From the NCBI GenBank assembly GCA_031409855.1, contig JANNYA010000168.1:5715-69714 (forward strand): a DNA stretch of 64,000 nt, read 5' to 3'. The notes under the pieces are model-generated. The model had not been told where the DNA came from. It saw only the letters and a list, made by a program, of their open reading frames with translations, and searched no databases. The stretch's first letter is position 1; each line of letters opens with the position of its first letter. The DNA is from Rhodanobacteraceae bacterium. Its GTDB lineage: Bacteria; Pseudomonadota; Gammaproteobacteria; Xanthomonadales; SZUA-5. The translations under genes and the position numbers were made by a program. Positions 55,567-57,133 of this stretch are shown one piece after another.

Positions 55567-56690
55567 TTGATCCTGATCTTGCCTCGCTTTCGCGGGTTGC
55601 CGAAGTTTGCCGAAAACAGCCCGTACGGATGGAGCAACTTTTTTGGAAATCTATTTGGTGGTCGCGGTGAGAATGAAAAGAACGCTGATGAGATGGGCGA
55701 AGGCGACCATTTAGGCGACAACAAATTAGTAGCAGTGCGCGCTGCTTCGAATGCTCGTAAGGCTCTCAACACTGCGGCTGAGGCTGTAAAGGACGTTTAT
55801 GTAGCGGACGTTACCGGGCGGCTAGCTGCTGCAGGGCTAATGTCTATCGGTGGAAAATTATTTCAGGTCGTTGCAGATAAATACGGTCGGTTACGGGCAG
55901 TGCCTTGCAATTGTTTTGTTGCTGGCACGTTAGTTCTCACGGATAACGGACTTGTTCCAATTGAAACTATCAAGGTTGGTGACAAAGTTGCGGCGCGCGA
56001 CGACAAAACGGGCGAGAGCGAATTTCGCGAAGTATTACAATTGTTTGGCAATCCAGACAAAGCCGTTTTGAATGTTGAATTTACGGACGCACTGGGAACG
56101 CGCGAAATCTTTGAGGTAACTGCCGAACACCCGTTTATGACTGAGAACGGGTGGGTAGAAGCATCGAAACTGATGCTTGGGATGCAACTCAAGACTTATG
56201 ATGGTCGTGCATTGAACTTTGTCAATCGTATTGATGAAGGTGTTCATGCCCGGACGTACAACTTTGAAGTGGACGAGTTTCATACTTACTTCGTTGGTAG
56301 GAGTGGAGTATGGGTTCATAATTCCGGTGATTGTTGGAAAATGACGTCGATATTTGGACATGCGTTTCGATATCACGGAAGCGGGAAGAAAATTGCTATG
56401 TCACTCGCTGATACCGCTAGAACAACCGGTACGCCCCAAGGACAATGGATGAACAACGCTGCGGCCGCACAATTAATTAGCTCTCAAGGAATTATCAAAG
56501 GGGTCACTGAGATGAACATTCCCCCTGGACTAAGCGTGAATACCGCAGGCGAAAATATCGCCGAGTTCCAAAATGCGGGCTTCAACCCAAGACTTTCTGT
56601 GTTCAAAGCTTTTCCCAAGGTATTTGTCCAAGCCGCACAGCCAAGATCGACGCACACTGCGGTTGACGCAGTGAAATGTTCCGGCTTGTG
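55567..56690 (+). pseudogene. orphan polymorphic-toxin cassette: pretoxin-HINT domain plus ~120-aa C-terminal toxin domain, no credible start
   Basis: Hint domain CFVAGTLVLTDNGLVPIETIKVGDKV...TAEHPFMTENGWVEASKL...YNFEVDEFHTYFVGRSGVWVHNS (55912-56321), followed by GDCWKMTSIFGHAFRYHGSGKK...GQWMNN. The ORF begins at TTG with no N-terminal trafficking part. Its frame continues to 56859 only by reading the desaturase remnant out of frame. Confidence 0.65.
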
Positions 56691-57133
56691 TTGGATCGAC
56701 GAGTTGGCGGCTGATGGAGCGTACATGGCCACTGCACCAACTACCGCTTGCGCTTTGTTTGTACTATCTCGGCGGCATGGCTTGGGTGGTTTGGGGTATT
56801 TCGGCCAGGATCGCAGTGTCGGTGACAAGCCACTGGGTGGTTACGTACTTCGCCCATAATCCTGAGCCCGGAAAGTGGCGCGTGCTTAGCGCAGGGGTAC
56901 AAGCCTCAAACTTGCCGTGGGTTGCGCTGCTAACCCACGGCGAGTGCTGGCACAACAATCACCACGCGTTTCCAGAATCGGTGCAGCTTGGGCTAGAATT
57001 CGGCCAGTTGGACACAGGCTGGCTGGTGCTTAGACTGCTTAAGAAATTGGGGCTGGTATCTCAACTCGGTGTCCCTCGCGTTGTGGCATCTCGGGATGAT
57101 CTGGTGTTGGAAGCTTCTGGTCACATCAAGTAG
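56690..57133 (+). pseudogene. 3' fragment of the same fatty-acid desaturase gene
   Basis: ERTWPLHQLPLALCLYYLGGMAWVVWGISARIAVSVTSHWVVTYFAHN...LLTHGECWHNNHHAFPESVQLGL (C-terminal His box). An in-frame stop lies at 56672, just upstream. Confidence 0.7.

Follow-up and report, generated by a model that had tools for sequence, protein, structure and literature searches.

A probable remnant of an orphan PT-HINT cassette, with a truncated and likely RNase A-like toxin tip, in an rhs island of a Rhodanobacteraceae bacterium

In polymorphic toxins of the RHS family, the C-terminus of an RHS/Tc-type carrier is where a working cassette is attached. The orphan rhs-CT/rhsI and cdiA-CT/cdiI modules (PMC3150448, PMC3967940) are C-terminal (CT) toxin fragments that come directly after a full-length rhs gene and the associated immunity gene, in the orientation of both, are devoid of translation initiation signals and have a GC content below that of the core genome; classic orphans still carry part of the core or demarcating motif and are accompanied by a working immunity gene, and orphan regions can be transcribed by read-through (PMC3150448). 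A second reference point is the RNase A-like domain of CdiA-CT Ykris (5E3E, PF18431), in which His175, Arg186, Thr276 and Tyr278 are experimentally important, for which a Tyr/Phe alternation is described, and whose carriers include Rhs and PT-HINT proteins (PMC5435912). The subject here is an open reading frame (ORF) at positions 55567-56859 (plus strand) of a 64,000-nucleotide stretch of contig JANNYA010000168.1 (assembly GCA_031409855.1) from a Rhodanobacteraceae bacterium, the whole of which is termed the window. The ORF comprises 430 codons, uninterrupted in the ORF list and the raw sequence, and lies in a 10.9-kb rhs island (45786-56711) between two halves of a desaturase gene. It very probably no longer functions and is left over from an orphan cassette that encoded the C-terminus of an RHS-family polymorphic toxin. 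An earlier note on this DNA had proposed an orphan pretoxin-HINT (PT-HINT) cassette and was right to do so: the cassette comes after the resident rhs gene and the associated immunity gene, all three in one orientation, and it shares with the described orphans the lack of initiation signals and the low GC content. By contrast with the classic orphans, it has neither a core motif piece nor an immunity gene, and only the first 69 aa of its toxin domain are left.

The ORF is a mechanical chimera of unrelated pieces: a linker, a PT-HINT module, a toxin tip, a stretch antisense to a gene resembling REP-associated tyrosine transposases (RAYT-like), and an off-frame stretch of desaturase. In three-frame translation it opens with a TTG that lies two codons past an in-frame TGA; it is start-less apart from this TTG, as first described, and no upstream N-terminal region exists. 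The pre-HINT segment (aa 1-115, 55567-55911, plus strand) was assessed by blastp with aa 1-125 as the query, which found no relatives of aa 1-58, while aa ~59-115 resemble the pre-HINT linkers of other polymorphic toxins, with matches to P0039, P0011, P0103 and the RHS-CT of locus L001 from about aa 59-69 on. The intact PT-HINT module follows (aa 116-253, 55912-56325, plus strand; Pfam PF07591 and motifs) and leads into the truncated, likely RNase A-like tip (aa 254-322, 56326-56532, plus strand), of which 69 of ~108 aa remain, as placed by DNA identity to L001 and homolog alignment. The next segment (aa 323-382, 56533-56712) reads a minus-strand RAYT-like fragment (56534-56711) in antisense, as placed by DNA identity to loci L002 and L003, and the last (aa 383-430, 56713-56856, plus strand) reads a desaturase 3' remnant off-frame, with desaturase homology starting at ~56705-56711.

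The ~120 aa behind the HINT module, originally left unplaced as a single piece, are in fact two: only aa 254-322 are toxin tip, and aa 323-382 are antisense RAYT-like sequence. When the post-HINT sequence of the ORF is used as a query, two unrelated groups of short proteins are found: P0004 matches SLADTARTTGTPQGQWMNNAAAA...IPPGL and then differs for ~40 aa, and P0001, P0002, P0003, P0005 and P0006 match VNTAGENIAEFQNAGF...CWIDELAA and diverge afterwards. At the DNA level, the tip (56338-56531) is 77% identical to the L001 tip, and the first junction is sharp, with L001 tip homology stopping at 56531 and RAYT-like homology beginning at 56534. The second junction falls within 56705-56711, where 'TTGGCGGC' is common to the RAYT-like piece and the desaturase. 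The junctions share 0-8 nt, with up to 8 nt at the desaturase join. The out-of-frame reading of the desaturase at the end of the ORF had been recognized correctly, although its extent is ~48-51 codons and not the ~55 proposed. The long ORF exists only because the frame happens to be free of stops across both junk segments.

Pfam PT-HINT (PF07591) matches aa 122-253 over the entire profile (positions 1-137 of 137; E 1.8e-28) with a score of 99.9 bits versus a curated cut-off of 27.7, and a Hint_2 match begins at C116 (nt 55912). All of the Hint motifs can be read in the sequence: C116 (CFVAGT), T185-x-x-H188 (TAEHPF) and VHNS at 250-253. The HINT span first proposed (55912-56321) holds with its end placed at 56325, the PT-HINT match being far beyond chance. 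The module is 59-63% identical to the HINT of P0008 and P0009, whose tip differs. The tip found here has a PT-HINT directly before it in 11 of 49 family members, and it starts within ~10 aa of VHNS in the window copy, P0010, P0020, P0134, P0139, P0141 and others.

Profile search with the tip found 48 homologs, all of them unnamed or annotated as 'polymorphic toxin-type HINT domain-containing, partial', from Pseudomonas protegens, Paenibacillus, Deinococcus, Cohnella and metagenomes. An exhaustive HMM search places the family at no fewer than 649 representative clusters (50% identity representatives) at E <= 1e-3, with 502 at E <= 1e-10, and the spread includes Pseudomonas, Paenibacillus, Deinococcus, cyanobacteria and many metagenomes. 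The tip is at the extreme C-terminus in all of the best 150 of the at least 649 matches listed. Complete tips run ~108 aa past the HINT and end in G-x-[RK]-T-A-[YF]-P-I (P0010, P0020 and the L001 ORF); the ending G-x-[RK]-T-A-[YF]-P extends to the 48 homologs. The invariant or near-invariant positions are F14, G15, H16, F18, H21, G22, L31, A35, Q42, G43, Q44, W45, A51, A52, P69, G80, G96, A100 and P102. No Pfam or NCBIfam model reaches its threshold for the tip part of the ORF, for four tips or for P0127.

The window tip, with its FGHAFRYHG motif at 56353-56379, aligns with the complete tips of P0010, P0020 and L001 and keeps every conserved position through P69. It ends at IPPGL, and alignment with the 48 homologs reveals the loss of the final ~40 aa, and with them of G80, P102 and T-A-Y-P; with a structural model of P0127 as the reference, four of the six strands (the last four) are gone from the truncated domain. 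A truncation had been suspected at the island border; the truncation is real, but its place is an internal junction (56531-56533) ~175 bp before the desaturase junction. The homologs show a domain cut at 56532, not one that ends naturally before 56690. A derivation from a toxin architecture different from that of the resident gene had also been suggested. This does not hold, as the tip, with or without PT-HINT, ends RHS/Tc-type proteins like the resident one: P0182 has SpvB, FG-GAP, TcdB_midN and RHS repeats with the tip attached directly, P0190 is an SpvB, FG-GAP carrier joined to the tip through PT-HINT, P0229 is RHS + HINT + tip, P0010 begins with an RHS core end, and in a cyanobacterium a complete HINT + tip orphan is located behind a 6362-aa RHS gene. 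Other carriers are P0171, in which an RHS core end is fused straight to the tip, P0217 (DUF6531-RHS) and P0170 (PT-TG). The closest relative of the window tip is a decayed orphan at L001 1996-2427, which has a complete C-terminus, no HINT and no start, and which sits behind a different RHS-CT and a DUF3027-like gene and before an N-terminally short member of an immunity family (2513-2926).

The tip is probably a divergent RNase A-like nuclease. The fold was tested on complete family members (P0171 and P0127), not on the truncated window copy. The AlphaFold2 (AF2) model of P0171 has 5e3e_B (CdiA-CT Ykris) as its top Foldseek match (E 1.5e-3, prob 1.00, TMt 0.61), with 114/114 residues aligned at 20% identity. 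In the AF2 model of P0127 (pLDDT 94.5) a six-stranded sheet comes after helices, and the best PDB match of this model by Foldseek is the tRNase toxin YxiD-CT (9v8i_B, prob 0.91, TM 0.55); CdiA-CT Ykris (5E3E) and RNase A are among the structures closest to the YxiD/MafB2 family. Foldseek found nothing for the tip model among viral structures, and searching PDB sequences with the profiles A1 and A3 yielded noise only. Below-threshold matches to PF18431 (RNAse_A_bac) are noted for P0171 (19.9 bits, E 0.0014) and P0168 (E 0.15), both of which align profile position 1 with the tip start.

Three motif blocks are collinear between the tip family and 5e3e_B, the sequence of which was partly rebuilt from the mutagenesis primers of Batot et al. 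and then verified against the PDB. Block 1 (RHVGKTEAELLNRVSTGN in 5e3e_B, EHGSGAKNTERLMDRALGTGN in the tip family) includes His175 and Arg186, block 2 (VTNARII and ATWARVV, respectively) includes no catalytic residue, and block 3, at the end (GYKIITGYPTP and GLRTAYPII), includes Thr276 and Tyr278. H270 (Y-H-G) of the window tip corresponds to the invariant H21 of the family and aligns with the catalytic His175, and its block, H-x-G..K.TE..L[LM][ND]R..TGN, is collinear with 5e3e_B residues 4-24. The speculation that the paired His residues of HAFRYH hint at an RNase is thus supported by alignment, with the second His as the likely counterpart of the CdiA-CT residue. The C-terminal T-x-Y/F-P is present in complete members (RTAYP, KSAFP) and deleted from the window copy, and the Tyr/Phe alternation of PMC5435912 recurs in the tip family.

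The piece that follows the tip is a 178-bp internal fragment (56534-56711, minus strand) of a RAYT-like, Y1/HUH transposase-type gene, covering codons ~6-64 and cut at both ends. It shares 94.9% identity with L002 2668-2845 and 89% with L003; in both of these loci the counterpart forms the 5' portion of a 319-aa gene read from the other strand (L002 1899-2858 and L003 2911-3870, both minus). The minus strand of the window reads QLVDPTQAGTFHCVNRSVRRSWLCGLDKYLGKSFEHRKSWVEARILELGDIFACGIHA and then a stop, matching the 319-aa proteins of L002 and L003. These relatives carry an HUH-like motif, SNHLHIVVH (HLH), and match NCBIfam REP_Tyr_transpos (E 1.2e-9, 38 bits, cut-off 80) and Pfam Y1_Tnp (E 0.0033, 18 bits, cut-off 23). 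They resemble REP-associated tyrosine transposases and IS200-type Y1 enzymes in the HUH-like motif and the sub-threshold matches, but are twice the typical RAYT length, and all of the matches are below curated cut-offs. An assignment of 56534-56711 as a non-coding IS110 end, considered in view of a Transposase_20 gene nearby in L003, was rejected after ORF analysis, which identified the coding 5' part of the 319-aa gene. No second or inverted copy of 56534-56711 was found at the left island border. In L002 an intact RAYT-like gene is located directly downstream of an RHS-CT/immunity pair, in the same orientation as the window fragment. The sequence common to L002 and L003 reaches only ~40 bp upstream of the RAYT-like ATG, an extent which suggests that the RAYT-like gene may be a discrete mobile unit. 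In L003, a long tandem repeat of ~75 bp (…TTATTCTGCGCATTTACATTCTGCTGACGCTCTTCTTCCTTGCGCTGGGCCTCTTGCTGCGCTG…) occupies 4060-4309 at the contig end, adjoining the RAYT-like gene.

In three loci with complete tips (L084, L086 and L001) a conserved ORF is found downstream: a 173-aa member at L084 7084-7605 that begins 7 nt past the P0020 stop, a 169-aa member at L086 373-882, and the N-terminally short member of L001 (137 aa). The three are mutually related (35% identity with E 5e-28, and 28% with E 2e-9), have no Pfam or NCBIfam match, and form a family that is a candidate cognate immunity protein. No trace of this family is detected in the 64-kb window by tblastn (E > 3). The absence of a downstream immunity ORF, reported at the outset, is therefore confirmed, with the RAYT fragment and desaturase coming next and the family missing from all 64 kb.

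A history can be proposed for the locus. In the working state, the HINT would help to release a ~108-aa nuclease, which would cleave target-cell RNA via the invariant His of GHxFxxHG and the C-terminal T-x-[Y/F]-P, as does CdiA-CT Ykris, while the producer would be shielded by a cognate immunity protein whose gene comes next. The ancestral order would have been rhs, immunity gene, [HINT-tip, second immunity gene], RAYT; this order is proposed because L002 has an rhs core end, CT, immunity gene and RAYT-like gene in the orientation of the window. One deletion would have run from inside the tip, across the immunity gene and into the RAYT-like gene, and a second illegitimate junction would have joined the RAYT-like 5' stump to the desaturase 3' remnant. 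The joint loss of a toxin C-terminus and its immunity gene is a deletion that a cell can survive. The cassette in its present form can neither intoxicate nor recombine homologously into the resident gene. With the tip truncated, no start or promoter signal, no crossover substrate and no immunity gene, the cassette is regarded as a pseudogene.

Several observations weigh against this account of the tip and the locus. No family member reaches the gathering threshold of PF18431 (27), and the window tip and 47 of the 49 members have no match to it; HMMER gives no link between the family profile and 5e3e_B; and in the window copy a Thr takes the place of the Arg of D-R-A that is present in most members. 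The HINT + tip frame of 966 nt is still free of stops and frameshifts, which suggests that the decay is recent or the constraint weak, and some chimeric polypeptide may be made from read-through. The order of events and the former presence of an immunity gene are deduced from more distant loci. The junctions are known from one assembly only, and an exact 24-nt probe of junction 1 found no second copy in metagenome contigs. A scan of genome contigs with the desaturase fragment gave 70% identity at best and no close relative.

Of the alternatives, a silent reserve cassette that could be grafted onto the resident rhs gene by recombination to switch its toxin is improbable. Toxin switching by recombination has reportedly been shown for the orphan rhs of Salmonella. 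The position of the cassette, behind an rhs gene and an immunity gene on the same strand, is the classic one, its HINT + tip frame remains open, and orphans are proposed as reservoirs of toxin diversity (PMC3150448, PMC3967940). However, blastn detects no DNA homology between the orphan 5' region and the resident rhs gene (best E 0.75), and the resident gene has no HINT in which a crossover could occur; thus, the orphan has no crossover substrate. At the protein level, the best alignment of the orphan with the resident rhs product has an E of 0.89 and is not collinear, and TIGR03696 has no match on the orphan; 'NSPYGW' in the orphan was considered as a DPxGW core-end motif and set aside as too weak and dubious. 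That the orphan does not share the core end of the resident gene had been noted as unusual: the observation is correct, and the orphans of L001 and L084, which are also without a core end, show that it is not unusual. The nuclease has moreover lost its last ~40 aa together with a catalytic motif, which largely refutes the reserve function, and grafting of an intact toxin with no immunity gene would be suicidal. The window cassette is a decayed orphan, not a reserve module.

It is very unlikely that the ORF is a functional stand-alone HINT protein, translated from the TTG or from an internal ATG (55693) and furnished by the fusion with a new C-terminus. Its 430 codons are uninterrupted, and many 'polymorphic toxin-type HINT domain-containing' proteins of 250-550 aa are annotated in databases. 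Set against this are the final 108 codons, which are antisense to a transposase gene and then off-frame in the desaturase, and a toxin domain left without four of its six strands. Expression signals are likewise missing: promoter scan finds no promoter-like site at 55300-55567, and no purine-rich Shine-Dalgarno sequence is seen before TTG 55567 or ATG 55693. The short ORFs annotated over the RAYT 5' end in other contigs (P0001-P0003, P0005 and P0006) are antisense artefacts of gene calling. A caution for gene calling follows, with the 430-aa chimera and the P0001-type antisense ORFs as examples of spurious proteins.

Equally hard to sustain is an assembly artefact, in which the joins of tip, RAYT-like piece and desaturase would be chimeric and the real genome would hold a complete cassette. 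All of the junctions are on one contig, and the junction probe is unmatched in metagenome contigs, as would suit such an error. The desaturase halves, however, lie on either side of the island with matching orientation and frame order, unlike a random misjoin; the 0-8 nt shared at the junctions are far under assembler k-mer overlaps; and the window has no repeat on which to mis-join. More doubtful still is the conjecture that the chimeric ORF is a newborn gene, expressed by read-through from the rhs-immunity operon and composed of an intact self-cleaving HINT, a dead RNase half and a novel tail; if true, the chimera might be retained for a role such as that of a decoy or modulator, directed at RNase A-like toxins that come in or at the resident RHS system. 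Least credible of all, to the point of being practically dismissed, is an intein or other selfish Hint element in place of a pretoxin module, as the intein N- and C-terminal splicing models match only weakly and below threshold (E 0.015 and 0.018) while PT-HINT scores 99.9 bits, no homing endonuclease or host protein to splice is present, and a polymorphic-toxin tip comes directly after the Hint module as in the 11 family members.

The island that holds the remnant is bounded by desaturase fragments, which were mapped by tblastn with the intact desaturases of L013, L004, L005, L021 and L007. The 5' fragment at the left border (45505..45785, plus strand; homolog aa 3 to ~98) includes the HRCLIH His box, and its homology ends after '...ERLLVW'. 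The 3' fragment at the right border (56705..57133, plus strand, frame 2; homolog aa ~160-304) is also matched by Pfam FA_desaturase (E 2.6e-11, profile positions 147-233). The halves are co-oriented and ~58 codons (homolog aa ~99-159) are missing between them; thus, the insertion came with or before a deletion. The right flanks of L002 and L003 encode no desaturase, the presence of which would have meant a shared insertion site. GC is 0.42-0.48 in the resident CT, the immunity gene and the orphan compared to 0.53-0.56 in the flanks, and by this measure the composition of these three segments is foreign.

The resident RHS/Tc-type toxin (46019..54805, plus strand; 2928 aa with a signal peptide) has SpvB, FG-GAP, TcdB_toxin_midN and RHS_repeat matches in Pfam and an Rhs_assc_core match in NCBIfam (E 1.7e-15); Pfam finds no HINT in it. 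Its core end, DPTGY at 53888-53902, has 84% DNA identity to the core end of L002, in which the same RHS core end is followed by a different CT, the immunity gene of that CT and then the RAYT-like gene. The resident CT (53903-54805) has no family assignment. It includes a zincin-like HEYAHG motif at 54569-54586, with a weak Peptidase_M78 match (E 0.043), and a tandem 11-aa duplication (LRKSANGAQDQ/RLKSANGAQDG) at 54050-54115. The next gene (54795..55310, plus strand; GC 0.417), known from the ORF list, overlaps the rhs stop by 11 nt, encodes a lipoprotein-like protein with an LTGC lipobox, and has no family match in Pfam or NCBIfam; by its position it is the putative immunity gene of the resident toxin, and the lipoprotein signal hints at a periplasmic target. 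Between this gene and the orphan lies a 256-bp spacer (55311..55566) with stops in all three forward frames. A near-perfect hairpin in the spacer (55480-55520; 20-nt arms, 1-nt loop, 90% complementary, no T-run) has no second copy in the window and could represent a REP-like or recombination site; Rfam has no match over 54700-57300, and the hairpin is not a repeated REP within the window. Upstream of the resident rhs gene, CATAAA[AT]T occurs three times (45837, 45858, 45918) within an AT-rich segment (45800-45960), and these copies could be regulator-binding or promoter elements of the island.

Among known toxins, the closest parallel to the tip family is CdiA-CT Ykris (5E3E, PF18431, PMC5435912), with which it shares the fold, the collinear catalytic motifs and the T-x-Y-P at the extreme C-terminus. 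Both are carried by Rhs and PT-HINT proteins and have immunity genes as neighbours. The tip family is ~20 residues shorter between the catalytic His and T-x-Y, and has in addition a QGQW motif and another invariant His (GHxFxxHG); in the window copy the catalytic His survives and the T-x-Y/F-P half is lost. YxiD-CT and MafB2-CT2 (Ntox50, PF15542; 9V8I, 8HHJ; PMC12700104, PMC9970974) are also small alpha + beta C-terminal toxins of RNase A/BECR-like type with a His on the N-terminal side. By contrast, YxiD-CT is only 16% identical to the P0127 tip with no sequence-profile match, and Ntox50 uses three His residues, two of them C-terminal, whereas the tip family has no conserved C-terminal His.

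Among loci, the nearest likeness is the P0020 orphan of a Microcoleaceae cyanobacterium (L084), which has the module order of the window (linker, PT-HINT, tip) with no RHS core end, and which occupies the same position, behind the giant 6362-aa RHS gene and an Imm35 immunity gene. Unlike the window cassette, P0020 starts with an ATG and has a complete tip of 111 aa, and a gene of the immunity family (173 aa) begins 7 nt after it. P0020 is thus the apparent intact counterpart and likely shows the window cassette as it was before decay. The locus itself matters little: it is rhs-island debris, best annotated as a pseudogene or orphan fragment rather than as a 430-aa protein. The cassette is a decayed member of a well-known kind, the orphan modules (PMC3150448, PMC3967940), and the RNase A-like superfamily is already reported on Rhs and PT-HINT proteins (PMC5435912). 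What is mildly new is a sizeable RNase A-like branch, with its immunity family, that lies outside current profile libraries; with a dedicated profile, hundreds of 'hypothetical' toxin tips would receive a name, as would their immunity genes.

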